Shown: positions 8,766 to 52,325 of the stretch, piece by piece
Position numbering within the stretch: the stretch's first letter is position 1
How the letters are laid out: each line of letters opens with the position of its first letter
Assembly (NCBI GenBank): GCA_964016885.1
Contig: OZ024743.1
Location: 276,334,001 to 276,398,000, forward strand
From: Eledone cirrhosa
Lineage: Eukaryota
Direction: 5' to 3'
Length of the DNA stretch: 64,000 nucleotides
The notes under the pieces: model-generated
What the model was told of the DNA's origin: nothing
Seen by the model: only the letters and a program-made list of their open reading frames with translations
Databases searched by the model: none
Program-made: the position numbers and the translations under genes

Positions 8766-8768
<3 letters not shown>

Positions 8769-9021: not shown

Positions 9022-9059
9022 TATATATATATACATATATGTTCTATATATATATATAT

Positions 9060-9172
<113 letters not shown>

Positions 9173-9187
9173 TATATATATACAGAG

Positions 9188-15366: not shown

Positions 15367-15568
<202 letters not shown>

Positions 15569-19410: not shown

Positions 19411-19617
19411 TAATAGTTTCTGATTTAGGTAAAAGGCCAACAATTTGGGGGAAGGGGAAGTAAATTAAGTTGACCCAGTTTGTTACTGATACTTTATTTT
19501 GTCGACCCCCTAAGGATGAAAGGCAAAGCTAACATTGGTGGGATTTTAACACAGAACGTAAAGGGCCGTAATTCTATGCAGCAAAGCATGTTGCTCAATA
19601 CTGTCAGCTACTGCCCT
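19411..19617 (-). mobile_element. SINE S1, diverged full-length copy
   Basis: Core actttattttgtcgacccctaaggatgaaaggcaaag and the tRNA-like head are recognisable. Confidence 0.75.
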
Positions 19618-19647
19618 CATGTTAGAAGATTATAATATATATATATG

Positions 19648-19713
<66 letters not shown>

Positions 19714-19720
<7 letters not shown>

Positions 19721-20064
19721 GTGAGGTTTTTTTTACAAAATGAAAAATAACCGAGGTGTCCTACACGAGTGAAAGTACAAAGAAAAAAAGATGAAATCTA
19801 AAATGCAACTGGAGTCTTATTTTTTAAAAAATATATATATTTATCTGGTTCCTTTACCGGTTTCGCAGTTCTTCTGCTTTTCAAAAGTAGAGTTGAGATG
19901 GAGGGTCTGTGGTTTTTCTCACATGTGAGAAAAACCACAGACCCTCCATCTCAACTCTACTTTTGAAAAGCAGAAGAACTGCGAAACCGGTAAAGGAACC
20001 AGATAAATATATATATTTAAAAAAAAATAAGACTCCAGTTGCATTTTAGATTTCATCTTTTTTT

Positions 20065-20068
<4 letters not shown>
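19714..20068. mobile_element. Family P3 fold-back (~145-bp-arm palindrome) in (TA)n
   Basis: Arms 19779-19923 and 19924-20068 are centred on ctcacatgtgag. Confidence 0.85.
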
Positions 20069-20098
<30 letters not shown>

Positions 20099-20249
20099 TC
20101 CCGTAACTCCCGGGGGAGTCGTAGGGGGCGCCGTATTGACATACGAGGTTTCTTGGGCATTTTAAGCTTGGAGAAGCCCATTCCTCTCCAGGCCTGAGTA
20201 CAACAGCTTTCTTCCAGAGAAAGATAGAAAGTGAGAAAGAAATATAGAG

Positions 20250-20378
20250 GAAGAATCGACCCCAGTAATAGACTGGTACTTTTTGTTATCGACCTCGAAA
20301 GGATGAAAGGCAGAGAACCGTGATGAATACCATAAAGCATTCTATCCGACGTTCTAACGACTCTGCCAATTCGTCGCC
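20250..20378 (-). mobile_element. SINE S1, internally deleted
   Basis: gactggtactttttgttatcgacctcgaaaggatgaaaggc ... ctctgccaattcgtcgcc. Confidence 0.7.
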
Positions 20379-27224: not shown

Positions 27225-27362
27225 TTTATTTATTTGGCGTCGGATAAAATGGTTTGTGGTTTCGTTTCGGCTCTCTATGCTCTGAGTTCAAAACCCACCG
27301 AGGTCAACTTTACCTTTCATCCTTTCGAGGTCGATAAAAAAGTACTAGTCTAATATTGGGCT
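27225..27362 (+). mobile_element. SINE S1 fragment
   Basis: ctgagttcaaaacccaccgaggtcaactttacctttcatcctttcgaggtcgataaaa. Confidence 0.7.
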
Positions 27363-27983
27363 AAATTCTTCCTCTATATTTCTTTCTCAATTCCCCTCTA
27401 TCAGTCTCTCTTTCTCTGCAAAAAGAAATCGGCTGTGTTTAGAGCTAAAAGAGGATGGAATCCGCCTGATTTAAAAAAGTACCTAACGTACGCTGCATGT
27501 CACCTTGGGTCCCTTACAACCCCAACAGAAGTTACGGATCCAAACATAGATTTATTTATAACAGAAAAACCCATAATATAATCTTTAAATATTAATTTCG
27601 TCGTTAAATACTAAATCAAAGACGAAATATATAACATTATTAATATCTTTTTTAAGCATTCGTCACTGATTATATTAAAAACGCAGAATCGTTAGAGTTG
27701 GGAGATATGCTTAGTGGGTATTTGTCCCAGCTTTTGACATTCTGAATCCAAATGTCACCGAGGTCAACTTTGCCAGTCATTTCTCTTACAAATATTATAA
27801 TTTCAACTAACCTTGCTCTGATCACATAAAAGAAAAAAAAAAATCATACTAAACCTGCCTTTTCCACTAAGCAGTTCACACTCACCCACATTAAATCACC
27901 ATAACACCATATGGCCCTCTCCACCGCTTTGGATATTTCCACAACACTGCTACACAGCAAAGTTGTTTCGCAATAAATTATTA

Positions 27984-28094
27984 TTCCCGCCGAGGTTAAC
28001 TTTGCCTTTCATCCTTACGAGGTCGATAAAATAAAGTACCAGTAATGTACTGGGTAATTGCTGGTCTTGTGCCAAAAAGTAGAAACAATTATTA
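27984..28094 (+). mobile_element. SINE S1, 5'-truncated, flanked by short ATT tracts
   Basis: attattatt|cccgccgaggttaac...ggtcttgtgccaaaaagtagaaacaattattat. Confidence 0.8.
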
Positions 28095-28415
28095 TATATT
28101 TAATTTTATTTAATTATACTAATTTTTATAAAACTGTGACCGTTTAAAGTCCAGTAATGCGTCCTAGGCAGCTGCCTAGTTAGCCTTAATGGCGTCGCCG
28201 ACCTTGATTACATCAATGTAAGAAATCAATACGTGGGAGGTGAACTGTATGGTACAGCTGTACAGAGAAAGCTGGTCACTACTTCTTATTGCTAAAGAAA
28301 ATACGATAATACCACATGTCACCAGATAATAGATTCAAACAACATGTGTATATGTTGATTTGTTTATTTGTGTTCATGCATGCATGTATGTATATACATA
28401 TACATATACATACAC

Positions 28416-28447
<32 letters not shown>

Positions 28448-28611
28448 GCGTGTGTGTGTAGGTTATTGTTATATTTATAATATACACGGTTAGACAAAAG
28501 GTCTGTGGCTTTTGGAAATTACGATTTTTCAATTGTTAAACTAATCAATCAATCAATTAACCACAGTAATACACACGCACACATACATACACATTATTAT
28601 TATTAGGGTAG

Positions 28612-29030
28612 AGGTGGGCGGTGGATTGGCAGTATCGGTAGAGGGTCGGACGCCATGCTTTGCAGCATAGAGTTACGGCCCTTTATGATCTGAGTTCAAA
28701 TCCCGCCGAGGTTAACTTTGTCTTTCACCCTTACGGGGGTCGATAAAATAAAGTACCAGTCATGCACTGGGGTAGATTTAATCGACTTTCCCCCTCCCCC
28801 AAAATTACTGGCCTTGTGCCTATATAAGAAACCACGAGGGCGGTGGATTGGTAGTATCGGTTGAGCATCGGACACCATGCTTTGCAGCATAGAGTTATGG
28901 TCCTTTACTGTCTGAGTTCAAATCCCTCCGAGGTTAACCTTGCCATTCATCCTTATAGGGTCGATAAAATAAAGCACCAGTAACGTACTGAGGTCGATTT
29001 AATCGATTTATCCCCCCCCCCCAAAAAAAA
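28612..29030 (+). mobile_element. Head-to-tail dimer of SINE S1
   Basis: Copies at about 28615-28832 and 28837-29030, each with A/B boxes; preceded by (ATT)4. Confidence 0.85.
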
Positions 29031-29099
29031 ACCCCAGATACACACACATGTATCTTTAGATGTTTATACTTGTGATGTATTTATATTGACATAATTTGA

Positions 29100-29676
29100 T
29101 ATTCCGAGGCCATAGTATATAGAATAAGGACGGGTTGGAAGAAGTTTAAGGAGCTGTTTCCTCTGCTGACGAAGAAGGGTTTCTCCCTGCGTACGAAAGG
29201 CCGGTTATATGATGCCTGTGTGAGGAGCGCGATGTTGCATGGTAGTGAGACTTGGGCAGCAACTGCAGAGGATATGCGACGGCTGGAGAGAAATGAGGCA
29301 AGCATGCTCCGTTGGATGTGCAATGTCAATGTACGTGAACGACCCAGCATGGATGTGTTGAGAGAGAAACTGTGTCTGGGTGGGATAGTATGTAGTGTGC
29401 GAGAGAGGAGACTTGGAGGTATGGATATGTGATGCGAATGGAGGATGACCGATGGGTGAAGAAATGCCAGGAAATGCCAGTTGAAGGAAGATGTAGTAGA
29501 GGTAGACCACGAAAAACATGAGCAGAGGCGGGGAGAACAGACTTCATATCGCTGAAGCTCACGGTGGAGATGACGAAGGACTGTGACAAGTGGAGAGATG
29601 CTGTGCTGAATAAGATCCGTCCCATCCTTGCAAGCAGAGAGAAGCGGACGTAAATGATGATGATGATGATGATGAT
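29100..29676 (+). mobile_element. 5'-truncated RTE (BovB-like) LINE 3' end with (TGA)n tail
   Basis: KGRLYDACVRSAMLHGSETW...ERNEASMLRWMC and, after a frameshift, VEGRCSRGRPRKT: the characteristic RTE ORF C-terminus. Confidence 0.85.
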
Positions 29677-29689
29677 AATCTTCCTTAGT

Positions 29690-30936
29690 ATATAGTACTA
29701 TCTTTTGTATTTCTTCTATACGCAGGCTTCCAGGGATTTGGGATAAGTAATCATTAGACCCTTTAGGTATCATTCCTAGAACGCCTACAACCACTGGTAT
29801 TGTTTTAGTTCTCAATTTCCACATTTTTCCAATCTCTATATCCAGGTCTTTATACTTGCTCAACTTTTCAAATGTTTTTATAGATACAATCTTGTCTATA
29901 GGAACGGCCATGTCAATTAGCAGGCGTACCCTCTTTTTAAAGTCTTTCAGTATTATATCAGGTCTATTTGCATCTATTTTTCGGTCTGTTTGGATGCTAA
30001 AATTCCACAAAATTGAGATGTAACCTTTTTCAAGTACGGGAGGTGGTTGATGCTCCCACCAATTCTTTTGATGGTGCTGGTCAAAATGCTTACACATTAC
30101 CCAGTGTATGTATTGTGCAGCTATGCCGTGCCTGTTTAGGTATTCGGTTGGAGCTATAGGACTAGACATTGAGATTATATGATCAATGGTCTCTGGTTTT
30201 TTTTTATAAACACGGCATTATGGGTTTCATCCATTTGTTATGATGTTGGCTTGATAATTTTTTGTTGGCAGACACTGATCTTGTGCTGATATAATCAGTC
30301 CTTCAGTCTCCAATTTCAGTTCAGAGGATGCCAACCACTGATGGGTTAAAGTTGTCAACATCAGGATTGTTAGCTCTTTCTGGGTATTTTCCATACAGAG
30401 GCCTTTCTTGCTATTTCTTAGCCAGTTTCTTTAGAAGTTCTTTCTTTGCAGATACTTTTCCTTGCTTTGCTTTTTCTATATTTTTTATTTCAGCAGTAAA
30501 GGGAACTTCTGAAATTTGTAGTCCATTACTGTATCTTTGTGCATCTTTTTTAATGGAATATGATCTTTTGATGCTTTCGTGTTTCAAAACGAGTTTGGTC
30601 ATCCAATCATGTGATTCCCTTAGATATGTAGATAATCCAATTGTTCCAGTTTTCAACGCAATATCTAACTGGAGTAACCCACGTTCTCCTTCTTCCCTAG
30701 GTAGATATATTCTATCTGTATCTGCCTTAGGGTGATACATTCTGTGCATGGTTAAGAATTTTCTAATTTTCGTATCGAGTTTACAGATCTCTGCGCTTGA
30801 CCAGTTGATGACATTGAAACTGTAAGTTACTACTGGTATGGCAAGTGTATTTATGGCATCGATCCTATTCCTTGCATTCAATTCCGTTCTTAAAATTGCT
30901 CTTACTCTGCGGTAACATTCCTTCCTTAGCCTTAAC
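29690..30936 (-). mobile_element. 5'-truncated R4/Dong-type LINE (RT thumb, CCHC remnant, restriction-like endonuclease)
   Basis: AINTLAIPVVTYSF, HPKADTDRIYLPR.EG.RGL, ETEGLIISAQDQ, ETIDHIIS, YLNRH, RPDII...IDMAVP and EKLSKYKDL. Frameshifted; the 5' end abuts (TAA)n. Confidence 0.85.
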
Positions 30937-30955
30937 ATTATTATTATTATTATTA

Positions 30956-33900
30956 GTCGTTGAAGCAAATGGACGTACTATCGTGAGCTCGAAAGTTCGT
31001 TTTTTTCTACGGTTTGAAATACGTTTGTCATTAATATTATTGTTTCAAACGGCAAATAAGACTTTAGTCTTTGCCCCCAAGAAAGGACACCCCATAATAT
31101 TTGGGCATTTTGGCCCAAATATTTAAGCTTTGTGTGTTTAAAAAAAAAAGTTTTTATAAAAAAAACAAAAAACATGGCGGAGCCAACTTCGAGTTTGCTA
31201 TCTTACGACAGCGTGTCAAAAATAAAATGGCTTATAAGGCTGCCCCTCCCGCAACGATTTTAAAATGTAACAACACATCAGGCAATATCGCCAACACCAG
31301 TACCAACAACAGTGAGAACAAAAATGACAACAGCAGCAACAGCGACATTACCAAAAACAGTAAAAAAAACCCAAAACAGTCGTGAACAAGAACGACAACA
31401 GCACCAGCAACAACGACAGGAAAATCAACGACAATTGCAATAATGACAACAACAACTGAAAGAACGACAACAAAGACAACAATATCAACAACAGTGACAA
31501 CCACAACAACAGCAGCAGCAACAATATCAACGAAAACAACAACGAAATTAACACCACTAACCAGAACATAAACAGCGACAGCACCAACTGAAACAATACC
31601 AACTGCACCGAGAACAACAACAACGGCGGCACCAACGATATAACCAACTGTAACAGTGATAACAGAACAACACTAACAAGAACAACGACAACAACAACAC
31701 CAACGATAACAACAAGAACACTTTCGCTGCGACAGCAGCCAAGAAAAGGCCATGCTTCAACATGGACTTGACAGACAAGGAAACAAAGTTGGCCCAGGCA
31801 CGAAAGCTTATCATATAGGAGCAAACCTGGGCCAACTTAACTGTCCCGGCAGAGGTCATTGAAGCGGTGGAAAAGAGAACTCTGGTCTTCAGATGCATCT
31901 CAGCTGAGACGAAAAGAGCCACAAACTCTCCCCAAGCAGACGTCGAGGCTGCGCTGAGGTGCATCAGAGGAGATACAGAGTACGTAGCGAGGGGTCAACA
32001 ATACGGCACCTTCTCGGTGCTGTTTAAGTCGGAGGCCCTCGCTTTGAGGCACTTGACAACCCCTTGCAAAACCAGCAAGGTTATTATGTACTCTCCCACA
32101 TGGTAAAAAGAACAATTAGAGTCTGCATTCCCAGGATTCCACCTGGACTAGATATGTAGTGGCTCTTGGGATGCGTAATTGTGGAGGGGTCAGATGTCGT
32201 CCCAATAGAGGCAGGGTGGCCGGATTTCTTTAGACACCTGGAGGCCTTTCTGGGTGCGTCTCATCCTTTACTGTTAGCGGGGGACTGGAACGGCATCTTA
32301 GACGCACGCTGGGACGGTGTGAGAGTATCCGATAGGAGCGGGTGTGTGTGTGCGAAAGCCTCATGTACCTGATCAGCCAGTTCCAACTGTCTGACAGGTA
32401 CCGACTAGATTTCCCTAATGTGCTAGTGTGGACCTGGACAAATCGTTTAGAGACATCTAGATCGTACTTAGATAGATTTCTAATTAGATTAGTGGATAAG
32501 GATAGGGTGTCCACAATTACATACGGTCGCCTATTCAGGTCACAAGTTTGTGATCTGTATGGTCGACTAGATAAGACGCGTTGGTTATGACCTGGTTACT
32601 GGAAGCTGAACATGTCACATCAGGCTTACAGGGACCGGGTCAACAATTTAATTAAGAAAAAGTTGACAGGGGAAGTCGTCAACAATAGATGGTGGGGGGC
32701 TCTCAAAAGAGAGATTAGTGGCATTGCAGCTGACGTGCTAGCGGCGAGAATGGCATTAGATCATTTCTTCAATGCGAACACGAAGGTTGCATTGTCAGAG
32801 CTAAGGCGCGTGCTCTGAGAAACGAAGGAACCAAGCTGTTCGATGGGCCCGCATGGCATAGGCGGAGCGTGGTAATAAAACGATGATTCGGTCTTCGACG
32901 AATCGAGACGGACACGAGCTGAGCGATTCCAAGAGGATGTGTGAGGCCTTTCGCCAACATTTTGCTCGGTTGTTCGAGGGAAGTGGCGGGTCAGAGACGG
33001 TGGCGGAATTCAGTCCCTACCTCGATGGCTTGCCGCAACTCTCGACGGCCGACTCTGAGCGTTGCGAAAGGCCGATTACTTCAGCCGAGATTCAGGATGC
33101 CCTTGTCGGCTGCATGAGGCGCAAGTCTCTCGGTTTGGATGGTCTGCCCTACGAGCTTTACGTAAATATGCCATACTTGTTCTCCGATCTTCTCGAAGCG
33201 CTCTACTGCAACTGGCAGCAGAACGGGAGTATTCTCAGTTCTGTGAGCCGGGGCATAGTGACGCTGATAAGGAAAGACGAGAACAAGAGGGACACATTAG
33301 ACAATTTCAGGCCCATAACTCTGCTCAACACAGAGTTTAAGATTTTGGCCAAGGTGTTAGCGAAGAGGTTGGCGCTTGTCGTCGTGGATTTGGTTGGGGA
33401 GACGCAAACTTTCGCAATCCCAACCAGGTCCATATACGACAACCTCCACCTGATGCGATACATCATAGAGAGGGTAGGGTGTAAACCTGGCTTCGTTGGG
33501 CTCTGATCAATTTAGATCAATCGAAAGCATTCGATAGGGTCGACCATCGGTACCTGGAGGCTGTCCTCAACGCGGCTGGCTTCGGCCCCGTCTTCAGAAA
33601 CTGGATCACTGCAATGCACAACGGCACCTGCTCGGTGGTCAAAGTTAATGGCCACCTCTCGGAACCGTTTCAGATCTCCCGATAGGTCCGTCACCGGTGC
33701 CCTCTCTCCTCCCTTCTGTACGTATTGACTCTTGAGCCTTTACTTCGGAACTGGAGCTGTTGCAGGGCATCTCGCTCGAACCGGGACGCGGAAAGGCTGT
33801 GTCCGCTTATGCGGACGACATCACCGTGATGGTGTCGGACACCTCAGAAATCGAGGTGGTCGGCAACTTATTGGAAGAATATGAAAGGTTGACGGGAGCA

Positions 33901-35007
33901 AAACTTAAACCAGAAAAGTCGGTGGGCTTGCAACTCGGCACCTGGAGAAGCAAATCCATGCCGCCCAACAGCGTCGTTGGGCGCTGGACGGACGGACCGG
34001 TAAAGTTGCTCGGGGTTTGGTTCGGGCCAGACCTCCAGGTGGATAAGAATTGGGACGAGGTGACGGGCAGGGTAGCCAGTCTCACACAGAAATGGGCAGC
34101 GAGGAAGCTATCACTGAAAGGTCGGGCGGAGGTGGCGAACGCGTACATCGCGTCCGTCATCTACTACCGCCTGACCGTCGTCTCTTGCCCCCGTTCGCGC
34201 CTCGCCAACTTGGAACGGCTCCTCTTTCTTGTGGAGGGGTCAGGTTCCGTTGTTGAGGCGGTCCATCTGCTGCCAGCACCCTCTACGTGGAGGCTGGACA
34301 TGCAGTAGCTAATGATGCGCAGACACGCACTGAGGCGGCGGCATCTCCAGATATTCTGCCTAAACGGCGAACGGGTGTGGTCGCCGTTTGTCAGACGGGC
34401 CTTTCCGCAGCTCGTCTCTTTGACTGAGCTGCAGTTCTAGGTCAAGAAGAGACCGAGACTGGGTGACTGGCATCTGGAATGTTGCCAGGCACTCACTTCC
34501 CTCTAACAGGCGGGCAATGCGGTCAGCGGAACTTCCACTCTCGAGTTCTATAGAGGATTAGTGGTGGGCAAGTGCGATGACGTACTAGGAGAGGCTCTGG
34601 GCGTCGACGAAGTCGAACTAACCAGTCTGTTCCGGAGGACTTTCGAGCCGGGGACGATGGATAATTTCCAAAAATCCCTCGCTTGGCAGTGCTACAGGGG
34701 GACACTGCCGATTCGAGATAAACTCTACAGGCACGGAAGTGCTGTCAGACGGACCTGCCCGAGATGCGCGCAGAGCGGCGAGACCGTTCTGCACGCACTC
34801 GTCCAGTGTCCGTGCATTACTGACTTGTGGTGGGGTACCTGAGCGAACCCTGAGTGGTCATCCTCCCTATTGGTAAATTTTTCTTGTATTTTTCTTGTTA
34901 CGTTGTTATTGTTATTCATATTGTTTACTCGGTTTTTCTGTAAAACCCCACTGTCCCAGTCTTTTGTATTGTCTCCTATATGTCGGCCCTTGTGGCCAAT
35001 AAATGAA

Positions 35008-35046
<39 letters not shown>
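30956..35046 (+). mobile_element. Tx1/L1-type LINE copy A (family II), decayed with internal deletions
   Basis: 5' UTR and ORF1 start MAEP at 31174. ORF1 and ORF2 remnants are highly similar to copy D (YADD near 33808). AATAAA at 34998 and (ATT)n tail at 35008-35046. Confidence 0.9.
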
Positions 35047-41000: not shown

Positions 41001-41153
41001 CTCCCCCCTATTGGGGAATTTTTCATTGTTATTTTTTGTTACATTCTCTGTTTTTGTTTTTTACACGCACAAATGCCCATTTGTACCGTCCTGTATTGTC
41101 CTGCACTGTCCTTAATGTCTACTTTATGTAAACCCTTGTGGTTAATAAAGAAA

Positions 41154-41188
<35 letters not shown>
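35047..41188 (+). mobile_element. Tx1/L1-type LINE copy B (family I), full length, disrupted
   Basis: ORF1 35258-37428 carries the knuckle CFRCGSKTHLRAFC. ORF2 37463-40905 has stops and frameshifts. AATAAA at 41144; (ATT)n at 41156-41188. Confidence 0.92.
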
Positions 41189-41396
41189 GGCGACCTACGT
41201 AGTAAATCGTATCATCGTGAGCTCCGCAAAGGTTTGTTATTTCCGTTTGTTAAAAATTGCCATTTATGGAAAATTTTATTGTTAACTGTTTATAAGCACA
41301 CATACATTGTTTTCCGAAAAGGACACCCAAAAAGATTGGGGCCTTGTGCCCAAAATTTTAACTTTTATTATTATCAAAAAATTTCTTTGAAAAAAA

Positions 41397-43390
41397 ATGG
41401 CTACTTCACCTCTGCACGAAGCAGCTGAAAGCCTTCCTCACAAAATAACACCTCACACCGACACCACCATTGTAAATATTACTACGTTTGCCAACACAAA
41501 AAAAAATATAAGCAGTAGCAATATTTTAAATTTGTCTCAGGCAGACATTCATTTCCCGCCATTACCAATGACTGCAGGTGTTAAAGCCTCCACTACCACC
41601 ACCACCGCGACAACCACCACCCCCACCACCACCTCGACAACAGAAACAAAAGAAGAAAAAAATAAATTAACTCGTGATGTCGAAATGAAATCAAGCAAAA
41701 TGGACTCTTCCCCACCAAAGACGACTGACGTCACCACCACCACAACTGAAACTAAAATTAATATTAACGATAGCAACAACAACAACAATGACATTATAAC
41801 CCCCCCCCCCCCCCTCAGTTTCGCCAGAGTAGCAAAACAGTTCAAAGATTATACGGTAACTCAGGAGGATTTAGAAAATGCCAAACAAATGGTAAAGAAA
41901 GATGGGTACAGGGTCAGCCTCACCCCCCCCCACCTAATAAAATGGAGCATCGGCGCCTGTGCACCGTGTCGTATAGAACAATAAATGTAAAATCGCGCCG
42001 AGTGGAACGGGCATCCGAGTCCCAAATCCAAAAAGCTTTGGGACATGTGTGGGCAAGAAAAACCCACATCAGACGTGGGCAAAAGTATGGAACCGTGGAT
42101 GTGTTTTTTGAAACACCAGAGGAGGCTAGAGAACACTCCATGGCCCCATTAAAAAGTGACGACCTCACACTCGTCCCAAGCTATTGTGGCCAGAGACTCG
42201 TAAAGATCAGGGTGACCCACGTTCCACCGGCCATCGAAATTCCCTGGCTAATAGCGGCTGTCCTCGCCGGCATCGAAGCCAACACGAAAATAATAGCAGT
42301 AGCAAAAGAAAAGCAGGAAAACTGGTCCGGATCTGGGATGGAGCTCCTGATCCAAGCGGAGCAAAAAAGCATTGAGGAGATCCCAGAGGTAATAGACCTC
42401 ACTGACGGCAGCCACCTCACGGTAATTGTCGAGGGCAGAAGACCTAGGTGTGTCGTTTGTGGTGAAGGAACCCACCTAAGGGCTTTCTGCCCTCAGGCTA
42501 AAAGGTTGAGGCCACCTCTCCTACCCACCACAGTGACACAACCATCAACACCACCAGTAGCAGAGATGGCAACAACAACTGTAGCAGCAACAACAGAAGC
42601 AACTATAACAGCAACAACCCCAGCAACAGTAGCAAAACCAACACCACTACCACCACCAGCAAAACCAACACCACCACCACCCAACGCTTCAGAACTAGCA
42701 CCAGCGCCTACACCATCCACCACACCACAACCAAAACTAACGGCTGTGGAGGATTTTCCACTCCCCGGCCTATCACAACTGGAGACAGATTGTGACGACG
42801 AGGAGTGGGAAACGATATCCGGAAAAAAAAAAGAAACCAAAAAAAGAAAAAATTCTCTTCCTTCCCCCTCCAAAAACAAAATACAGAGGGAAACAAATAA
42901 ACTAAGAAACAAAAAAGTTAGGACAGATATGCCACCATCCACACCAGCATCACCAACCCCATCAACCCAAACACCAACACCATCACCATCATTAACTCCA
43001 ACACCACCATCACCTACACCACAAAAGTCACCAAAATGCGAAACAGAAACAAACCCACAACAAACGCAAACAAAACAAAACAACCAAAACGATACACACT
43101 ACACAGCATTAAATTTGAACAACAAGCAATTATTACACTACATCCAACACAACACCAGCATCACAGAAAAAGACTACACAACAACCCCAAAATTCACACC
43201 ACCTCCACACATACAAATCACTCGCATCACACAGAAAACGTACATGACACTAAAACAAAAATTCCCCAAAGACATCGGAGACTTCCGACAAGCACTCTCC
43301 AGGAGGATTTATAAGGACATCCTTCCTGAGGAGGCCACAAGCAGTGAAAAGGATGGAAAAGCCGTCCTTCCCCTACGAGAAGTAAGGTAA
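41397..43390 (+). pseudogene. LINE ORF1 (RRM-like region, CCHC zinc knuckle, Pro/Thr-rich linker), one frameshift
   Basis: Split between ORFs 41397 and 41942, probably at the C-run near 41922-41934. Knuckle CVVCGEGTHLRAFC. Confidence 0.8.
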
Positions 43391-43424
43391 GTGGTCTTTC
43401 CCATCTTTTCCACTCCTTTTCAAC

Positions 43425-46400
43425 ATGACCTCACTCAGAATAGGCAGCATAAATGCGCGTGGCTTGGGGTCGTCATGGAAGCAGGGCCACCTGCTCAACG
43501 ACCTCAGGTCACTAAACATAGATGTAGTGGCCATCAGCGAGACCAGAATCTCCGAAGCACAGGCTTTCGCACCGATCTTCGGCGGCTACGATGTGTACGC
43601 ATCTCCCAGCCGTCCGGGATCGGGGGGAGGAGTTGCTGTGCTTTTTCGGAGAGGTTTGGATCTTGCCATACGGGCCATCTTCCTGGACCCAGAAGGTAAG
43701 TTGGTGGTGCTGGACGTGACCAGCGGAGACGGGCAAGCTTTCAGGTTAGTGGCCGTCTATGCCCCGACAGGAGCAGGGCGGCCTGATTTCTTCCGGCGTC
43801 TGGAGACCTTTCTTGGAACGTCCCGCTCTTTAGTGTTAGTGGGCGACTGGAACGGGATCTTAGATGACGCTGGGATTGTGTGGGATTAGTGGATAGGGAA
43901 GGAGGGTGCAAGAGTCTCACCAACCTGCTCAGACGTTTTGAACTGTCTGACAGGTACCGAATGGATTTCCCGAATGTACCAATGTGGACTTGGACAAATC
44001 GCATAGGGTCATCCAGATCATATCTAGATAGAGTATTTTGTAGGGAAATAGATAGGTCTAGCATAGGCTGTCCACAATTCAAGGTAGTCAGCTACACGGA
44101 CCACAAATTCGTGATCTGTGTGCTTGACTTAGATAGGCTTCATAGACGAGGACCCGGCTACTGGAAGCTAAACGCGTCCTTACCAGAGCGCAAGGCCTAC
44201 AGAGACCGGATTAGCGAACTAGTTAAGCGGGCGTTGACGGGGGCCATCGTCAACAACAAGTGGTGGTTTGCTCTGAAAAGAGCAATTAGAATAGAGTCCA
44301 TTAGGTTTAGTAAGACTTTAGCAATAGAGAAAAATAGAGCAGAGGGAGAATTAGTTAGAAAATTAGATGAGGCGCTTAGCAAAGGCATCGCGACCGACGT
44401 ACTTGCGGCGAAATTGGCCCTTGATCAATTCTTCAATGCAAAGCACGAAGGCTGCGTTGTCAGAGCTAGGGTGCGTGCTCTCAGACACGAGGGGACGAAA
44501 GCCGTTCAATGGGCCCGAGTGGCGGAGGCGCGTCGTGGGAACAAAGCCACGATCCGGTCTTTGGTGGACCACGACGGGCGCATGCTACTCGATCCCGGGC
44601 AAATGTGTGAAGCTTTTCAGCGACACTTCGCTCAACTGTTCGGGGGCAGTGGCGGGCCGGATCGAGGGATGGACTTTAGTGTCTACCTCGACGGACTGCC
44701 GCGGCTTTCGGCCACTGAGGCGGAGTGTTGCGAAAAGCCGATAACAACCGCTGAAGTACGGGATGCAATGACTAGTTGCACAAGGGGTAAATCGCCTGGT
44801 TTGGATGGTCTGCCCTATGAACTTTACGTACAAATGCCAAACTTGTTCGGAGGCCTCTTGGCGGACGTCTACTGCAACTGGCAACAGAACGGGAGAATTC
44901 CCAGCTCTGTGAGCCGAGGAGCGGTGGCGCTGCTGAGAAAGTATCCGAACAAGGGGGATAACATAGATAATTTTAGGCCCATAACCCTGCTAAACACAGA
45001 GTTCAAGATTTTGGCCAAGGTGCTAGCAAAGAGGTTGGCGCTTGTCGTTGGTGGTCTGGTGGGAGAGGCACAGACATGCGCCATTCCCGACAGATCCATC
45101 CACGACAACCTCCACCTCATGCGATACATCGTAGAGAGGGTAGCTAGGGAACCTGGCACGGGTGGGTCTTTGATCAATTTAGATCAGTCGAAAGCCTTCG
45201 ATAGGGTCGACCATCGTTACCTAACGGCAGTCCTGAGGGCGGCTGGCTTTGGGCCCGTCTTCAGAGGCTGGATCGCTGCCATGCACAGCGACATCTGCTC
45301 TGTAGTGAGAGTGAACGGTCACCTTTCGGAACCGTTCAACATCATGCGCTCGGTCCGCCAAGGATGTCCCCTCTCGTCCCTATTGTACGTATTGACTGTC
45401 GAGCCATTACTGCACAAACTGGAGACGTTGAGGGGGGTCCCGCGCGAACTAGGATGCGGAAGATCCGTGTCAGCATATGCCGACGATGTCACCGTAGTGG
45501 TGTCGAACGCCAAACACATCGAGGCGATCGGCACTACACTAAGAGAATACGAAGCGGTGACAGGAACAATGATCAACCAGGAAAAGTCAGTGGGCCTGCA
45601 GCTCGGCACCTGGAGAGGCAGGTCCATGCCGTCCAACAGCGTCGTCGGGCGCTGGACGGACGGACCGGTTAAATTGCTAGGGGTCTGGTTCGGTCCAGAC
45701 CTCCAGACGGACAAAAACTGGGACGAGGTGACGAGCAGGGTGGCTTCTCTCACCCAGAAATGGGCCGAGAGGAAGCTATCCCTGAAAGGTCGAGCGGAGG
45801 TGGCGAATGCGTACATCGCATCCGTCATCTACTACCGCCTGACCGTCGTACCTTGTCCTAAGCCCCGCCTGACTGCGCTGGAGCGTTTGCTCTTTCGCTT
45901 CTTGTGGAAGGGACGCGCTCCGATGGTCAGGCGGTCCATCTGCTGTCAACACCCGCTACGTGGAGGGCTGGGCATGCCGTGGCTGATGATACGCAGACAC
46001 GCGCTCAGGCTACGACATCTCCACCTCTTCCTCGACGGTGATCAGGTGTGGTCGCCGTTTGCAAGACACGTTTTTCCCCAGCTCGTCTCCTTGACGGAGC
46101 TGCAGTCCTGGGTCAAGCGAAGACCGAGAGGGAGCGCTTGGAGACTGGAATGTCTTCAGGCGCTCACAGCCCTCGACCAATCGGGCAATGTGATCGGTGG
46201 AAACTCCACCTTGGCGTTCTATAGGGGATTAGTGTAGGGGAAGAGCGACGACGTACTTGGAGAAACTCTAGGCGTCGACGAAAATCAACTAGCCAATCTC
46301 TTCGGAAGGACTTTCGGGCCGGGGCCTATGGACAACTTCCAGAAATCCCTGGCCTGGCAGTGCTACCGAGGAGCTTTGCTAGTTCGGGATAAACTCTACA

Positions 46401-46843
46401 GGCATGGAGGTGCCGTCAGCCGGGCATGTCCGAGATGCGCGCAGGGCGACGAAACCGTCCTGCACGCACTCGTCCAGTGTCCGAACATTGCTGACTTGTG
46501 GGTTTATGTCGAACACCTGCTGTCACGTGTAGGACGGATCCAGCTATCAGCTGAGTCCATCGTGAGGATTGCCCCGCCCCCTTCCTTTAGCCTGGAAGGG
46601 CAGGCAGTTTTTATCTGTCTGGTGGCCATGGCGAAAGTGATAGTATGGTGGACACGTTTGAAAAGGCTGAAGACGAGCACTTACCTCTTCGGTGATGCCC
46701 TGATTAAATTTTTCAAATTACATTTGAAAAGGAAAATCAGGGTAGAGAGGGAAGTGCTCTCTTCCCAGCATATTGTTGAAAGATGGGTGAGAGAAGCAAG
46801 TATGGCCCGAATGAATGGGCCTTCTCTGAGTATGTGTCTGTAA
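43425..46843 (+). pseudogene. LINE ORF2 (APE-RT-CCHC), one frameshift and one stop
   Basis: 1-nt deletion near 43866 and TAG at 46235 (GAG in the other copies). GDWN, TDH, YADD and CPRC..H...C motifs are present. Confidence 0.9.
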
Positions 46844-47317
46844 ATTAAAGGTGGAAAACTGGGAGAGGGCACTTGCCCTGGTGGTCAGGGCCACTGTGGT
46901 CTTTTAATGGGCTTTCTCCACAAATGTCCCTTGGCAGTCTCCCCCCTATTGGGGAATTTTTCTTTGTTATTTTATTTCAACCTCTGTTTTTTTACACGCA
47001 GAAATGCCCATTTGTACCGTCCTGTATTGTCCTGTACTGTCCTTAATGTCTACTTTATGTGAACCCTTGTGGTTAATAAAGAAAACATTATTATTATTAT
47101 TATTATTGACGAAAGTGGATGTACGTTTTTTGAAGCTCCGTGAGTAAGCAATTTTTTGAGGATTAATTGTAGAGAATTGTTTATTTTTTGTACCGCTGAA
47201 GCATTATAAGACATTCATTTGTATCCTGTGAAGGAATAACTCATAATATTTGGGCCTTTTGGCCCAAATATTTGAACTTTATTTTGGAAAAAATAATAAT
47301 TTTTTTCTCAAATAAAC

Positions 47318-48583
47318 ATGGCGGAGCCACGCCCCCTAGAGGCGGGCCTGCTGTCGTGCAACGGCGACTTGAGCGTTGAGAGGAGAGGTGAGGCGAGGAG
47401 CGCCACCAGCACGAGTGTGAGCAGCGACAGTGCCAGCACCAACGGGCCGAGCGGCGCGGAAGGTGGTAACAGCGACAACACCAACACCAACAAGCCGAAC
47501 AGCGCAGAAGGTGGTAATAGCGAGAGCACCAACAAAACGAACAGAACAGAGAGTAATAGTAGCGACAGCAACAGCACCAACAAGGCCAACAGCACAGAGG
47601 GTAACCACGACACAGGGGAGAACAACAACAGCAATAGCAGCAGCAACACCAACAAGAACAACAACAGTGACAACACCAACAAGAACACCTTCGCTGCTGT
47701 GGCAGCGGCTAAAAGGAGACCATGCTACAGCATCGACTTAACCAACAGAGAGGAAAAGTTGGCCCAGGCCTGGAAAATCATAAATCAAGAGCAGACCTGG
47801 GCAAACTTAACTGTCCCGGCAGAAGCCATTGAGGCAGTGGAAAAAAGAACGGTGCATTTCAGATGCATCTCAGTAGAGACAAAGAGGGCAGCGATAATCG
47901 CCCAAGCTGATATAGAAGCCGCACTGAAATACATCAGAGAGGACACAGACTTCATAGAGAGGGGCAGGCAATACGGCACCGTTTCGGTGCTGTTCAAGTC
48001 TGAAGCCCTCGCTGTGAAGCATTCAATGACCCCTTGCAAAACCAGCAAGGTTATAATGTACCCCTCCCACATGGGAAAACGAATAGCACGTGCATCACCA
48101 ACACAACCACCAAAATCCCCCAAACGCAAACAAGCTAAACAGACACAAGAACAAATAGACACACAAACATCAGAAACTACAGACACCCCACCCACAACAA
48201 ACGCAGACACAATAGAAACAACACTAACAAAGCTATCACCACCACAATCACACGAACAAATAAAACCCGAGCAACAAAACATTAAAAACTTCGTGCTTGC
48301 CAGAAGGGCCAACAAGGAATTGATGGCCCATGTAGCACGAAGCACAAACATCGAAAAAGACGGGGAAACATTTGAAGCGAGCACATTTCGCGTACCAGAT
48401 AATTTGCTTCTGATGCGAATGTCGCTCGCTTCATACAAAGAAATTCGAAAGAGCTTTCCTCGGGATGTGGGAACCCCGAACGTAAAACCCACGTCAAGAC
48501 TATTAAAGGGGTTCCCAAAAGAAACCCCACAAACCATGGAGGTCGAACCACCCGACCTTCACAAGACCCCGGAAGGTAAGTAA
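47318..48583 (+). CDS. LINE ORF1 protein (421 aa, lacks zinc knuckle)
   Basis: Asn/Ser-rich N-terminus and TFAAVAA motif. RGRQYGTVSVLF is homologous to RGQKYGTVDVFF of copy C. Confidence 0.85.
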   Translation: MAEPRPLEAGLLSCNGDLSVERRGEARSATSTSVSSDSASTNGPSGAEGGNSDNTNTNKPNSAEGGNSESTNKTNRTESNSSDSNSTNKANSTEGNHDTGENNNSNSSSNTNKNNNSDNTNKNTFAAVAAAKRRPCYSIDLTNREEKLAQAWKIINQEQTWANLTVPAEAIEAVEKRTVHFRCISVETKRAAIIAQADIEAALKYIREDTDFIERGRQYGTVSVLFKSEALAVKHSMTPCKTSKVIMYPSHMGKRIARASPTQPPKSPKRKQAKQTQEQIDTQTSETTDTPPTTNADTIETTLTKLSPPQSHEQIKPEQQNIKNFVLARRANKELMAHVARSTNIEKDGETFEASTFRVPDNLLLMRMSLASYKEIRKSFPRDVGTPNVKPTSRLLKGFPKETPQTMEVEPPDLHKTPEGK

Positions 48584-48612
48584 ACCTTTCCTCTCCCATT
48601 CATCCTGCCAGC

Positions 48613-51600
48613 ATGGCCATAAGAGTAGGAAGTTTAAATGTTCGTGGCCTGGGGTCGCCCTGGAAGCAAGGTCACTTGCTCAACGACCTCAGGTCACTAG
48701 GAATGGATGTAATTGCCATCAGCGAGACCAGAATTTCCGACACACGCACACTGGCGCCGATTTTCGACGATTATCAGATCTTTGCATCTGTTAGTCGGCC
48801 GGGAATGGGAGGTGGAGTGGCTGTGCTGTTTAGGAAATGTCTGGATCTCGAGGTAAGGTCAATCTTCCGGGATCCTGACGGAAAGTTGGTGGTCCTGGAC
48901 GTGAGCAATAGCGAAGGTGGTGCCTTTAGACTGGTGGCCGTCTACGCCCCTACTGGGGCCGGTCGGCCGGACTTCTTTAGGCGCCTGGAAAACTTTCTGC
49001 TTACGTCTCGCCCTTTACTGTTAATAGGGGATTGGAATGGCATCTTAGAAGCACGCTGGGATTGTGTGGGAGTATCTGATAGGAGCGGGGGGTGCAAAAG
49101 CCTCAAGTACCTGATCAGCCAGTTTCAACTGTCTGACAGGTACCGACTAGATTTCCCTAATGCGCCAGTATGGACCTGGACCAATCGCATAGGGTCATCT
49201 AGATCGTACATAGATAGGATTTTCATTAGGAAAAGAGATAGAAATAGTGTAGGATGTCCACATTTTAAAACGGTTGCCTATTCAGATCACAAGCTTGTGA
49301 TCTGTATGGTCGACCTAGATAAGACACGTAGGTTAGGACCTAGCTACTGGAAGCTAAACATGTCGTTTCCGGCACGTAAAGATTACAGGGACCGGGTCAA
49401 CAACTTAGTTAAGCAAAAGTTGACAGGGGGGGTTGTCAACAACAGGTGGTGGGGGGCACTCAAAAGAGAGATTAGAGCAACCTCGATAGGATTTAGCAAA
49501 GAAGTAGCAATAGAGAAAAATAGAAAGGAGGAGGGGCTGATAGCTAAGTTAGACGAGGCTATTTGTAGTGGCATTGCAACAGACGTGCTAGCGGCGAGAA
49601 TGGCACTAGACCATTTCTTCAATGCGAAACACGAAGGTTGCATTGTCAGAGCTAAGGCGCGTGCTCTGAGGAACGAGGGAACCAAAGCTGCCCGATGGGC
49701 TCGCTTTGCAGAGACGCAGCGTGGAAATAAAACCACAATTCGGTCTTTGACGGATCGAGATGGACACGAACTGAGCGATTCCAAGCAGATGTGTGAGGCC
49801 TTTCGCCAGCACTTTGCTCGATTGTTCGGGAGGATGGGTGAGTCGGAGACGGCGGCGGACTTCAGTCCCTACCTCGACGGCTTGCCACGCCTCTCGACGG
49901 CCGACGCTGAGCGCTGCGAAGAGCCGATAACATCAGTCGAAATTCAGGACGCCCTTGTCGGCTGCTCGAGTCGCAAGTCACCCGGTTTGGATGGTCTGCC
50001 CTACGAGCTTTACGTAAATATGCCAGACTTGTTCTCCGATCTCCTCGAAGCGCTCTACTGCAACTGGCAGCAGAACGGGAGTATTCCCAGTTCTTTGAGC
50101 CGTGGCGTAGTGACGCTGATAAGGAAAGACGAGAACAAGAGGGACACACTAGATAATTTCAGGCCCATAACCCTGCTCAACACAGAGTTTAAGATTTTGG
50201 CCAAGGTGTTAGCGAAAAGGTTGGCGCTTGTCGTCAAAGATTTGGTTGGGGAGGCGCAAACTTGCGCAATCCCGACCAGGTCCATACACGACAACCTCCA
50301 CCTCATGCGATACATCATAGAGAGGGTTGGGTGCAAACCTGGCTTCGGTGGGGCTCTGATCAATTTAGATCAATCGAAAGCATTCGATAGGGTCGACCAT
50401 CGGTACTTGGAGGCTGTCCTCGAGGCGGCTGGCTTCGGCCCTGTCTTCAGAAGCTGGATCGCTGCAATGTACAGCAGCATCTGCTCGGTGGTCAAAGTTA
50501 ATGGCCACCTCTCGGAACCGTTTCAGATCTCTCGATCGGTCCGTCAAGGGTGCCCTCTCTCCTCACTTCTGTACGTATTGACTCTTGAGCCTCTACTGCG
50601 GAAGCTGGAGTTGTTGCAGGGCATCCCGCTCGAACCGGGACGTAGAAAGGCTGCGTCCGCTTATGCGGACGACATCACCGTGATGGTGTCGGACACCTCG
50701 GAAATCGAGGTGAATCGCACCCATTTGGAGGAATATGAAAGGTTGACGGGAGCAAAACTTAACCCGGAAAAGTCGGTGGGCTTGCAGCTCGGCACCTGGA
50801 GAGGCAAGTCCATGCCGTCTAACAGCGTCGTTGGGCGCTGGACAGACGGACCGGTAAAGTTGCTCGGGGTTTGGTTCGGACCAGACCTCCAGGTGGATAA
50901 GAATTGGGACGAGGTGACGGGCAGGATAGCCAACCTCACCCAGAAATGGGCTGAGAGAAAGCTATCACTGAAAGGGCGGGCGGAGGTGGCGAACGCGTAC
51001 ATCGCGTCCGTCATCTACTACCGCCTGACCGTCGTGCCTTGCCCCCGTCCACGCCTCGCCAATTTGGAACGGCTCCTTTTCAAATTTTTGTGGAGGGGAC
51101 GGGTCCCGTTGGTGAGGCGGTCCATCTGCTGCCAGCACCCTCTTCGTGGAGGGCTGGGCATGCCGTGGCTAATGATGCGCAGACATGCGCTGAGGCTGCG
51201 ACATCTCCAGATATTTTGCCTAAACGGTGAACAGGTGTGGTCGCCGTTTGTTAGACGGGCCTTTCCGCAGCTCATCTCTTTGACTGAGCTGCAGTCCTGG
51301 GTCAAGAAGAGACCGAGACTGGGCGACTGGCATCTGGAATGTTGCCAGGCGCTCACTGCACTCTGCAAGGTGGGCAATGCGGTCAGTGGAACTTCCACTC
51401 AAGATTTCTATAGAGGATTAGTGGAGGGTAAGTGCGATGACGTACTAGGAGAGGCTCTGGGCGTCAACGAAGTAGAACTGACCAGTATGTTCCGGAGGAC
51501 TTTCGAGCCGGGGACGATGGATAACTTCCAGAAATCCCTCGCTTGGCAGTGCTACCGGGGGGCGCTGCCGGTTCGGGATAAACTCTACAGGCACGGAAGT

Positions 51601-52032
51601 GCTGTCAGACGAACCTGCCCGAGATGCGCGCAGAGCGACGAAACCGTTCTGCACGCACTCGTCCAGTGTCCGTGCATTGCTGACTTGTGGGGTTATGTCG
51701 AACAGCTATTGTCGCGTGTAGAACGGATCCGGCTATCGTCCGAGTCCATAGTGAAGATTAACCCGCCGCCTTCTTTTGGTCAGGAAGGGCAGGCAATTTT
51801 CCTCTGCCTGGTGGCAGTAGCGAAAGAGGTTGCATGGTGGACCAGGTTGAAAGGACTGAAGACAGACACTTTTCTCTTCGGCCAATCCCTCATCAACTTC
51901 TTCAAGTTTCACTTGGAAAGGAAGGTGAGGGTGGAGAGAGAAGTGCTGCCCCCCAGTACATTTACTGAAAGGTGGGTGAATGTGGCGAGAATGGCCCGCG
52001 TCAGTGGGCCTACTCTGATCATGCGCCTGTAG
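48613..52032 (+). CDS. LINE ORF2: APE endonuclease, reverse transcriptase and C-terminal zinc finger (1139 aa, intact)
   Basis: APE motifs: SLNVRG, SETR, VYAP, GDWN, IDRIF, SDH. RT motifs: KSPGLDG, FRPITLLN, DQSKAFDRV, RQGCPLS, YADD, KLLGV. C-terminal CPRC-x8-H-x4-C. YWKLN and GGLGMP are typical of L1/Tx1. Confidence 0.96.
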   Translation: MAIRVGSLNVRGLGSPWKQGHLLNDLRSLGMDVIAISETRISDTRTLAPIFDDYQIFASVSRPGMGGGVAVLFRKCLDLEVRSIFRDPDGKLVVLDVSNSEGGAFRLVAVYAPTGAGRPDFFRRLENFLLTSRPLLLIGDWNGILEARWDCVGVSDRSGGCKSLKYLISQFQLSDRYRLDFPNAPVWTWTNRIGSSRSYIDRIFIRKRDRNSVGCPHFKTVAYSDHKLVICMVDLDKTRRLGPSYWKLNMSFPARKDYRDRVNNLVKQKLTGGVVNNRWWGALKREIRATSIGFSKEVAIEKNRKEEGLIAKLDEAICSGIATDVLAARMALDHFFNAKHEGCIVRAKARALRNEGTKAARWARFAETQRGNKTTIRSLTDRDGHELSDSKQMCEAFRQHFARLFGRMGESETAADFSPYLDGLPRLSTADAERCEEPITSVEIQDALVGCSSRKSPGLDGLPYELYVNMPDLFSDLLEALYCNWQQNGSIPSSLSRGVVTLIRKDENKRDTLDNFRPITLLNTEFKILAKVLAKRLALVVKDLVGEAQTCAIPTRSIHDNLHLMRYIIERVGCKPGFGGALINLDQSKAFDRVDHRYLEAVLEAAGFGPVFRSWIAAMYSSICSVVKVNGHLSEPFQISRSVRQGCPLSSLLYVLTLEPLLRKLELLQGIPLEPGRRKAASAYADDITVMVSDTSEIEVNRTHLEEYERLTGAKLNPEKSVGLQLGTWRGKSMPSNSVVGRWTDGPVKLLGVWFGPDLQVDKNWDEVTGRIANLTQKWAERKLSLKGRAEVANAYIASVIYYRLTVVPCPRPRLANLERLLFKFLWRGRVPLVRRSICCQHPLRGGLGMPWLMMRRHALRLRHLQIFCLNGEQVWSPFVRRAFPQLISLTELQSWVKKRPRLGDWHLECCQALTALCKVGNAVSGTSTQDFYRGLVEGKCDDVLGEALGVNEVELTSMFRRTFEPGTMDNFQKSLAWQCYRGALPVRDKLYRHGSAVRRTCPRCAQSDETVLHALVQCPCIADLWGYVEQLLSRVERIRLSSESIVKINPPPSFGQEGQAIFLCLVAVAKEVAWWTRLKGLKTDTFLFGQSLINFFKFHLERKVRVEREVLPPSTFTERWVNVARMARVSGPTLIMRL

Positions 52033-52282
52033 GCTGGTGAATTCGAGAAGGAGAGGGGTGCCCTTCCCGGGTGCCCTAGGAGCGTCGGGTGGCTCAGGAC
52101 TGGTGGGGTGCTTGAGTCAACCCTGGGTGGTGATCTCTCTTATTGGGGAACTTTCATTGTTGTATTTTTATTGTTATTTTGTTTTTTGTTATTTATACTT
52201 ACTCGATCTCTATGTAAACCCCCACTGTCCCTGTCTATTGTGTTGTCCCCTATATGTCGGCCCTTGTGGCCAATTATTGAAA

Positions 52283-52325
<43 letters not shown>

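Follow-up and report, generated by a model that had tools for sequence, protein, structure and literature searches.

A hairpin tail and an ATTAT target common to Tx1 LINEs and an abundant SINE suggest a retrotransposition partnership in the octopod Eledone cirrhosa

Which LINE copies the abundant SINE of an octopod genome, and by what feature would it choose the SINE RNA? The sharing of tails between SINEs and LINEs is as such already known, and no tail reading by animal relatives of human LINE-1 is reported in the literature searched; the octopus repeat literature, in its available portions, gives SINE abundance and names no partner. The question is raised by a window of 64,000 nt from Eledone cirrhosa (GCA_964016885.1, contig OZ024743.1, positions 276,334,001 to 276,398,000, forward strand), where SINE copies lie beside a head-to-tail array of four Tx1-clade LINEs at 30955-52284. 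The original prediction had placed a hairpin at the 3' end of each LINE, and all four were found in position:

30955-35009, plus strand: Tx1 LINE copy A, decayed, with internal deletions, of a D-like subfamily, between (ATT)6 (30937-30954) and (ATT)13
34985-34997, plus strand: hairpin at the 3' end of A, GGCC-CTTGT-GGCC, then AATAAA-T-GAAA
35047-41155, plus strand: Tx1 LINE copy B, with a broken ORF2, of the B/C subfamily, then (ATT)11
41131-41143, plus strand: hairpin at the 3' end of B, AACC-CTTGT-GGTT
41189-47086, plus strand: Tx1 LINE copy C, ORF2 split, then (ATT)7
47062-47074, plus strand: hairpin at the 3' end of C, AACC-CTTGT-GGTT
47108-52284, plus strand: Tx1 LINE copy D, then (ATT)13
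47318-48583, plus strand: ORF1 of D, from which 648 bp are deleted in frame near 48091
48613-52032, plus strand: open ORF2 of D, 1139 aa from the first ATG, with APE endonuclease, RT and zf-RVT domains
52259-52271, plus strand: hairpin at the 3' end of D, GGCC-CTTGT-GGCC

Copy A contains RVT_1 fragments and matches D at 91% over 32716-34830, while B, which contains EN and RT fragments, is 94.7% identical to C and 76% to D. The genome contains 40 or more copies of the 3' end of C at 99%, and full-length relatives of D measure about 5.82 kb. The deletion in D removes a CX2CX4HX4C zinc knuckle that other copies carry in their 642-codon ORF1 frame, making D a poor ORF1 source for a retrotransposition assay; D also has AATTAT in place of the AATAAA of its relatives. 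Although Tx1 3'UTRs are otherwise divergent, the terminal ~25 nt are conserved.

Placement of these LINEs in the Tx1 clade of the L1 group holds, judged by protein sequence comparison. The D ORF2 contains PF03372, PF00078 and PF13966 above the Pfam cutoff (APE endonuclease, RT and C-terminal zinc-binding domains) and scored 341.6 phmmer bits against Xenopus Tx1 ORF2, 198.8 against human L1 ORF2p, 84.6 against R2 and 58.7 against an RTE-like element of the same genome, where Tx1 and L1 themselves score 262.9. In a quick tree built without an L1 row or Kibi/Koshi sequences, D ORF2 grouped with Xenopus Tx1 at an SH-aLRT of only 84. On visual inspection, the full ORF1 of another copy (L102) shows the CX2CX4HX4C motif; a Pfam search with it returned no family. 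Neither ESM Atlas matches nor cluster names supplied a clade label for the LINE.

The SINE is of the Pol III type, about 190-220 nt long, with about 4-5 × 10^5 copies in the genome by extrapolation; 211 loci, including 5'-truncated copies and copies with target-site duplications (TSDs), were found in an unbiased sample of 120 stretches of 10 kb (1.2 Mb). Scored against what we take to be the Pol III box consensus, A- and B-box-like motifs occur in 63/67 and 62/67 near-full copies, 65-67 nt apart, and internal TTTT is absent from two window copies. We presume the head to be tRNA-type and the central core Deu/Nin-like; ARAGORN called 0 tRNA genes in the head, and a comparison with Rfam allowing E values up to 5 gave no tRNA. 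In a sister SINE, head and core are similar, the tail is different and the end is (ATAC)n; a search for its LINE partner found none. The window copies are as follows:

1487-1668, minus strand: SINE of the short-tail type, hairpin 1511-1499, with an ATTAT-starting repeat on each flank and a SINE 3' end directly before
15474-15568, minus strand: 5'-truncated SINE, hairpin 15497-15487
19416-19590, minus strand: older long-tail SINE, mutated hairpin
27985-28087, plus strand: 5'-truncated SINE of the short-tail type, wobble stem GGT/GCC, after (ATT)3
28616-28833, plus strand: full-length SINE of the long-tail type, hairpin 28810-28820, with a further SINE, not ATT, after it
28837-29026, plus strand: 3'-truncated SINE in tandem
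55888-56075, minus strand: full-length SINE of the short-tail type, hairpin 55911-55901, between (ATT)5 and (ATT)6

The GGC-CTTGT-GCC hairpins predicted in SINE copies are thus present, that given as 15488-15498 being displaced by one position. Both elements end in CCTTGTG-N8-12-GAAA-NN (~24 nt), and the predicted A-rich spacer with GAAA-NN does follow every hairpin. With ATT appended, the motif matched 106 times in the 1.2-Mb sample, at 91 SINE ends, six Tx1 ends and nine other sites that proved on inspection to be truncated SINE or Tx1 ends; each of 10 shuffles gave 0, and no third family in the sample carries it. The SINE tail is identical in register to those of Tx1 families D, B, C and E at 14-18 of 24 positions. 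A better-matching LINE clade, which would have spoken against the partnership, was sought among the LINE types present in the 1.2-Mb sample, and the RTE-, Dong-, CR1- and Ingi-like ends reached 8-11/24, equal to background: the null median was 9 over 5,556 ATTAT-preceding sites, those scoring at least 16 being almost all leftover SINE or Tx1 ends.

The insertion sites agree as well. TSDs of both elements begin with ATTAT, measuring 12-22 nt for the SINE and about 13-24 nt for Tx1, and both tails end 16-17 nt past the loop, exactly at the start of the ATTAT duplication. ATTAT follows 120 of 150 SINE ends, TSDs of at least 12 nt were found in 42 of the 150 (null 1.4%), and ATCT, AAT or GAT repeats follow none. 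Likewise, TSDs of 13-20 nt flank 6 of 19 Tx1 copies whose similarity ends inside the locus. The (ATT)n had been predicted to be a shared tail. This part did not stand: at least three ATT units follow just 21/150 SINE ends, variant ATT units are duplicated on both flanks of two Tx1 copies (L114 and L378), and the repeat is mostly duplicated target. Among young D loci, 19 of 20 are full length, with (ATT)n on both flanks in 19/19; eight of the full-length loci lie at a Tx1 3' end and three at a SINE 3' end. A SINE directly follows the Tx1 end in 6 of 30 cases, about as predicted from the ATTAT content of the runs, so these cases are not taken as a sign of extra preference. Every insertion regenerates its target site, which leads to head-to-tail arrays as well as to mixed junctions of SINE and Tx1. 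Runs of ATT are longer at Tx1 copies (median six units) than at SINE copies (median two), from which it follows that target stringency differs and is laxer for the SINE.

Could the likeness be chance between short AT-rich ends? The shared region covers only about 24 A-rich nucleotides at 60-75% identity, and folding against shuffles favored no 3' end by much (z 0.89 to −1.85), leaving no structural z-score signal. Against this, non-element sites reached 15/24 in only about 4 of 5,500 cases, and there is independent agreement in target site, register and size of the duplication; the motif, null and target tests largely refute chance, which we regard as highly improbable. A second alternative is that a rare or extinct LINE, a CR1/L2-group element or Dong spread the SINE and that its likeness to Tx1 reflects shared ancestry or coincidence. 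The window contains one further feature, which we presume from its motifs to be R4/Dong-like:

29681-30936, minus strand: LINE fragment, R4/Dong-like, adjoining the (ATT)6 at the start of the Tx1 array

Dong-like elements occur at SINE 3' junctions in 4/10 loci, and their (TAA)n end is the ATT microsatellite read from the other strand. They lie on the opposite strand, however, and none of the 150 SINE ends is followed by AAT repeats. The known partners of DeuSINEs and Nin-DC SINEs are CR1/L2-group LINEs (PMC3747384, Table 1, part of the source), and the sample is only 0.04% of the genome; the sampled CR1-, RTE-, Dong- and Ingi-like ends nevertheless mismatch the tail and end in other repeats, and the absence of the motif from any third family in the sample also weighs against another LINE, which we consider unlikely. 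Ages overlap, though measured by different yardsticks: SINE divergence medians are 6.5% and 12.1%, and ATT-type Tx1 copies are 78-98% identical to young copies. In-register tails, target, duplication size, overlapping ages and the Tx1 placement thus support the prediction that an ATT-targeting Tx1 lineage drives the SINE, which we hold to be very probable.

Whether the driver reads the tail is a separate matter. Run with tandem repeats masked, the duplication scan gave 24 duplications that start with ATTAT outside tandem DNA (inserts < 1 kb); 21 enclose the shared tail, and the remaining three fall within the 5-13 obtained with control seeds. This points to selective use of RNAs. Both SINE subfamilies, older and younger, retain the tail. 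In a 13-row family alignment, which omits one irregular old Tx1 end (L202), 88.5% of stem cells are paired and three of four pairs have changed on both sides; the stem of the SINE departs from those of Tx1 by a change on both sides, with pairing preserved. Of 60 unconstrained stem positions, 55 pair. Count-based covariation was weak (81/500 and 22/500 shuffles), with few independent family-level events, and SINE copies showed none among themselves, only post-insertion decay. Metagenome relatives (about 25-42% identity) are too distant to inform, no such hairpin appearing near AATAAA in the 15 of 80 loci checked, and four sequencing runs gave no usable hairpin variants.

A less demanding Tx1 driver would need only pairing of a 3' AUUAU with the nicked target, much as poly(A) pairs with TTTT in L1, and the CUUGU/GAAA tail would be a relic of Tx1-end capture or serve LINE 3'-end processing beside AATAAA, which adjoins the hairpin in all Tx1 families seen. 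Folding predictions lend this some weight. Predicted pair probability is 0.92-0.96 for the A hairpin, about 0.5 for B, about 0.73 for C and 0.95-0.99 for D in its 3'UTR context; in full-length SINE RNA the predicted median is 0.03, exceeding 0.5 in 6/55 copies, because an upstream palindrome captures the 5' arm, and limiting the pairing span gives 0.97 at 20 and 0.35-0.44 at 30-50. A nested branch of sister Tx1 families shares the hairpin and targets (ATCT)n: ATCT-type sequence comes next in 15/15 family E loci, and at the repeats of these families (4,510 exact ends) SINEs numbered 0 in two registers, compared with 14,213 at ATT. The target repeat tracks the partnership exactly, and the hairpin is not sufficient, as these sisters do not appear to move the SINE. 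Against so relaxed a driver, and against the tail as a relic, stand the enclosed tails, the compensated SINE stem and the retention across subfamilies; both versions seem improbable to us, and given Tx1 as driver, reading of the tail is quite probable. Stem-loop recognition, as predicted, thus gains from family covariation and selective use of tail-bearing RNAs, and loses from the predicted outcompeting of the SINE hairpin, the sisters without SINEs and a loop that is CTTGT throughout the window and varies across the lineage (a young sister family has CTAGT, and single copies have AATGT, GTTGT and TTTAT). We modestly favor direct reading of the hairpin fold in the SINE.

The common ~24-nt 3' end and the same ATTAT site make it likely that the Tx1 ORF2 protein copies the SINE in trans, probably choosing RNAs via the tail. 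The SINE would be transcribed by Pol III from its A and B boxes, and its tail, a small C-G-closed hairpin with a GAAA spacer, bound by ORF2p. The APE endonuclease would nick the bottom strand at 5'-ATAAT/R-3', which, like the TTTT/AA of L1, is a pyrimidine-purine step; AUUAU just 3' of the tail would then anneal to the nicked strand and prime reverse transcription, a second nick about 15-18 nt away giving the duplication. The SINE tail may be a module swapped in from a Tx1 ancestor. We tentatively suggest, at somewhat less than even odds, that the RT reads a minimal 24-nt hairpin tail rather than poly(A) in a two-key check of hairpin and AUUAU-target pairing. It is similarly conceivable that RNA recognition, with the hairpin kept, has split from DNA targeting (ATT vs ATCT), so that the SINE rides the ATT branch only.

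If this is true, one of the most abundant SINEs of the octopod genome rides only on an ATT-targeting Tx1 branch. The comparison names a likely driver for a SINE expansion to several hundred thousand copies. The part of PMC3747384 available poses as an open question whether the L1 clade had stringent recognition of 3' tails ancestrally, and counts only three L1-tail SINEs, all plant or algal. Young copies of the animal Tx1 lineage have both ORF1 and ORF2 open; together with natural stem and loop variants and two target specificities, they allow that question to be tested using a short RNA motif. Developers of insertion tools may also be interested in a compact APE-type ORF2 with sequence preference and a putative 24-nt loading signal.

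DeuSINE and Nin-DC elements, whose core we presume to resemble that of the octopod SINE, have CR1/L2-group partners in the portion of that literature available, unlike the Tx1 partner proposed here; tRNA-Deu SINEs are reported as major octopus SINEs in the available text of PMC4824008 and PMC8967140. In the accessible part of Kojima (2015, PMC4494074), crocodilian SINEU is assigned to Tx1-Mar by target preference and overlapping age; its heads are of snRNA type and its tail is poly(A), and no Repbase LINE similar to the 3' half of SINEU-1 was found there. The octopod pair likewise joins a SINE to a Tx1-clade LINE by target preference and age overlap, and differs in its Pol III boxes, its common hairpin tail and its ATTAT target. 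Kibi and Koshi, Tx1 families described there as specific to (TC)n and (TTC)n microsatellites, also target simple repeats, whereas the octopod families use (ATT)n and, in the sister branch, (ATCT)n. In ZfL2-1/ZfL2-2 and UnaL2, a 3' stem-loop with an exchangeable stem and a specific loop is read by ORF2, the requirement shown by assay and the binding region lying between EN and RT (Hayashi 2014, PMC4176376, available portion); octopod Tx1 is of another clade, is known from sequence, and its loop differs between sister families. Among L1-group elements, tail pairs in the literature available to the search come from plants and algae only, the SINEU/Tx1 link being one of target preference alone. 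ZmSINE2/3 with LINE1-1_ZM (maize/sorghum) and SINEX-3 with L1-1_CR (Chlamydomonas) have shared 3' ends of about 50-80 nt with poly(A)/poly(T) ends, and the hairpin of the monocot pair shows compensatory substitutions in the stem around a conserved loop; stringency was inferred (Ohshima 2013, PMC3747384, in part). The octopod SINE resembles them in having its 3' end in common with an L1-group LINE. It differs in that the host is an animal and the LINE is of the Tx1 branch, the common stretch measures 24 nt with a stem of 3-4 bp, and the target is a microsatellite.

The partnership that the original prediction drew between the SINE, a Pol III element of about 190–220 nt, and the Tx1-clade LINEs of this region is real and well supported, resting on a match of their 3' tails, target-site duplications that begin at ATTAT and overlapping ages. 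The SINE and Tx1 have the tail, the insertion target and the register in common. The LINEs lie in a single array:

30955–52284: four related LINE copies (A, B, C and D), head-to-tail, with spacers of (ATT)13, (ATT)11 and (ATT)7

In copy D, ORF2 is open and encodes an endonuclease, an RT and a zf-RVT domain. Because this ORF2 scores higher against Xenopus Tx1 ORF2 than against human L1 ORF2p (341.6 and 198.8 bits, same program), the Tx1 label holds for D; support for the placement is modest in a tree built without any L1 row. Among named relatives, the LINE protein comes closest to those in Argonauta (68% across the RT region) and a cuttlefish, which points to an octopod cephalopod as host. ORF1 of D carries a 648-bp in-frame deletion relative to other copies, which takes out a CCHC knuckle-like motif. 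Nineteen of the 20 young D loci (L101–L120), which are the top-scoring matches and no random draw, are full length, an unusually high share for a LINE, though the set was chosen for youth, and 9 of these have an open 1150-codon ORF2 frame. In two D copies (L108 and L118) the break falls at an identical site within ORF2, near D offset 1662, and the element's own sequence there includes ATTAT. Three Tx1 copies (L366, L378 and L170:9216, minus strand) are cut to 24–60 nt, barely beyond the hairpin tail, with ATT-starting repeats still flanking them.

The shared tail, a hairpin with a CTTGT loop followed by GAAA-NN, was found at every predicted position within a base or so. For a chance test, 120 stretches of 10 kb were sampled at round coordinates from the 3.0-Gb host genome; CCTTGTG-N8-12-GAAA-NN-ATT matched 106 times there (91 SINE, 6 Tx1 and 9 others that proved on inspection to be truncated SINE or Tx1 ends) and never in ten shuffles. 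The same stretches hold 211 SINE loci, 150 with a recognisable tail, and the SINE copy number extrapolates to about 4–5x10^5 genome-wide; exact-pattern counts across the genome gave 12,308 ATT-type and 4,510 ATCT-type Tx1 ends. Rival 3' ends, all types drawn from the sample, were those of LINEs that we take from their motifs to be RTE-like, ending in (GAT)n, Dong/R4-like, in (TAA)n, and CR1-like, in TA runs, along with one presumed Ingi-like copy. Three natural SINE tails matched Tx1 ends at 14–18 of 24 positions and the other LINEs at 8–11; 5,556 sites before ATTAT gave a null median of 9, nearly all of its high scores being leftover SINE or Tx1 ends. In the 120-stretch search the motif was also absent from elements outside this comparison of 3' ends: an RTE-X-like copy, additional R4-like families, and Penelope-like repeats. 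The RTE-like family (L141–L152; window 29081–29677) is itself very young and very abundant (118,346 candidates; 100% protein identity in 150 of 150 scored), and the sample seems to include short elements that combine a tRNA-like head with its (GAT)n tail. Elsewhere in the window are large inverted repeats or palindromes around (TA)n (6160–9200 and 19631–20071), probably foldback or MITE-like, and a GGT-rich repeat of about 5 kb with a 112-bp satellite unit (58141–63417).

ATTAT lies directly 3' of 120 of the 150 SINE ends, and none of the 150 is followed by ATCT, AAT or GAT repeats. Duplications of at least 12 nt were present in 42 of the 150 copies (range 12–22, 24 of them 14–17 nt; null 1.4%), beginning at ATTAT directly after GAAAC(A/C). 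(ATT)n flanks the full-length young D loci on both sides in 19 of 19, and their insertion points coincide with a Tx1 3' end in 8 and a SINE 3' end in 3. In a set of 30 Tx1 ends picked by their order along the genome, a SINE directly follows 6, and duplications of 13–20 nt occur in 6 of the 19 copies whose similarity ends inside the locus, the length of pure ATT duplications being ill-defined. Two Tx1 copies, L114 and L378, each carry a variant unit that is repeated on both flanks; therefore (ATT)n is mostly duplicated target and not the shared SINE/LINE tail first proposed. The median number of ATT units after the element end is 6 for Tx1 and 2 for the SINE, and the longer runs after Tx1 could be explained by AUU repeats that the LINE transcript picks up through read-through. 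R4/Dong-like LINEs (window 29681–30936, minus strand; L154–L164) insert into this microsatellite too, but on the other strand, and are often found tail-to-tail against the 3' end of a SINE or Tx1 copy. Runs of ATT/TAA thus serve as landing sites common to two unrelated endonuclease types. Divergence from the column majority has a median of 6.5% for short-tail SINEs (n=109) and 12.1% for long-tail SINEs (n=27), and sampled ATT-type Tx1 copies are 78–98% identical to young copies; the age ranges overlap, on yardsticks that differ between the two.

A machinery that inserts at ATTAT and copies RNA indiscriminately should leave inserts of other kinds between ATTAT duplications. With tandem repeats masked (32% of the sample), a scan of duplications less than 1 kb apart gave 24, of which 21 enclosed the shared tail, and the remaining 3 fall within the 5–13 given by seven control seeds. 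A sister SINE has a similar head and core, and is changed in both its tail and its end repeat, (ATAC)n, indicating that tail and target travel as one module. The copies of this older SINE in the window (11921–12108; 20216–20380, minus strand; 27238–27520) have a tail of about 170 nt ending in GGGACCATAC-(ATAC)n; a partner LINE for them was sought and not found. Sister Tx1 families targeting (ATCT)n (L068:4200–6530; L245–L259) share the same hairpin-AATAAA-GAAA end and nest in the tree among the ATT families, which implies a target switch in one branch. SINE ends followed by ATCT repeats number 0 genome-wide in two registers, versus 14,213 with ATT; since the ATCT families have the same hairpin, the hairpin is not sufficient.

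The proposal of stem-loop recognition fared unevenly. In its favor, 88.5% of stem cells are paired across 13 family or copy variants (one irregular end excluded), with both sides changed in 3 of 4 pairs. The covariation score exceeded 500 of 500 shuffles, but the count measures did not (81/500 and 22/500), and relatedness inflates all of these measures. Thirty Tx1 ends pair at 55 of the 60 stem positions left free by the search pattern, the terminal 25 nt are conserved while the rest of the 3'UTRs diverges, the duplications are tail-selective, and the inner pairs have predicted probabilities of 0.52–0.99 in the LINE context. Against it, the loop is not invariant as had been claimed, a young sister family having CUAGU, and the SINE hairpin is predicted to be unstable in full-length RNA (median probability 0.03; above 0.5 in 6 of 55), forming only with short-range folding. 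Recognition through the stem-loop is a plausible candidate mechanism. PMC5135761 makes a case for 3' stem-loops in human L1/Alu as well.

The most likely mechanism is target-primed reverse transcription of the SINE, carried out in trans by the Tx1 ORF2p. We propose, by analogy with L1 and L2 biochemistry for the binding, nicking and priming steps, that ORF2p would load RNAs through the 24-nt tail, the bottom strand would be nicked at 5'-ATAAT/R-3', and AUUAU pairing would prime reverse transcription. The literature compared, in the portions available, includes PMC3747384, PMC4494074, PMC4176376, PMC4758252, PMC4824008, PMC13282606, PMC8967140, PMC5203782, PMC10294476 and PMC11121367. No report of this SINE/Tx1 pair appeared in the portions searched, and Repbase Reports or Dfam could already hold the SINE or its partner. 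As far as the available texts go, two precedents bear comparison: SINEU and Tx1-Mar, a SINE and LINE tied by target preference only, and the plant or algal SINEs, which have L1 tails.
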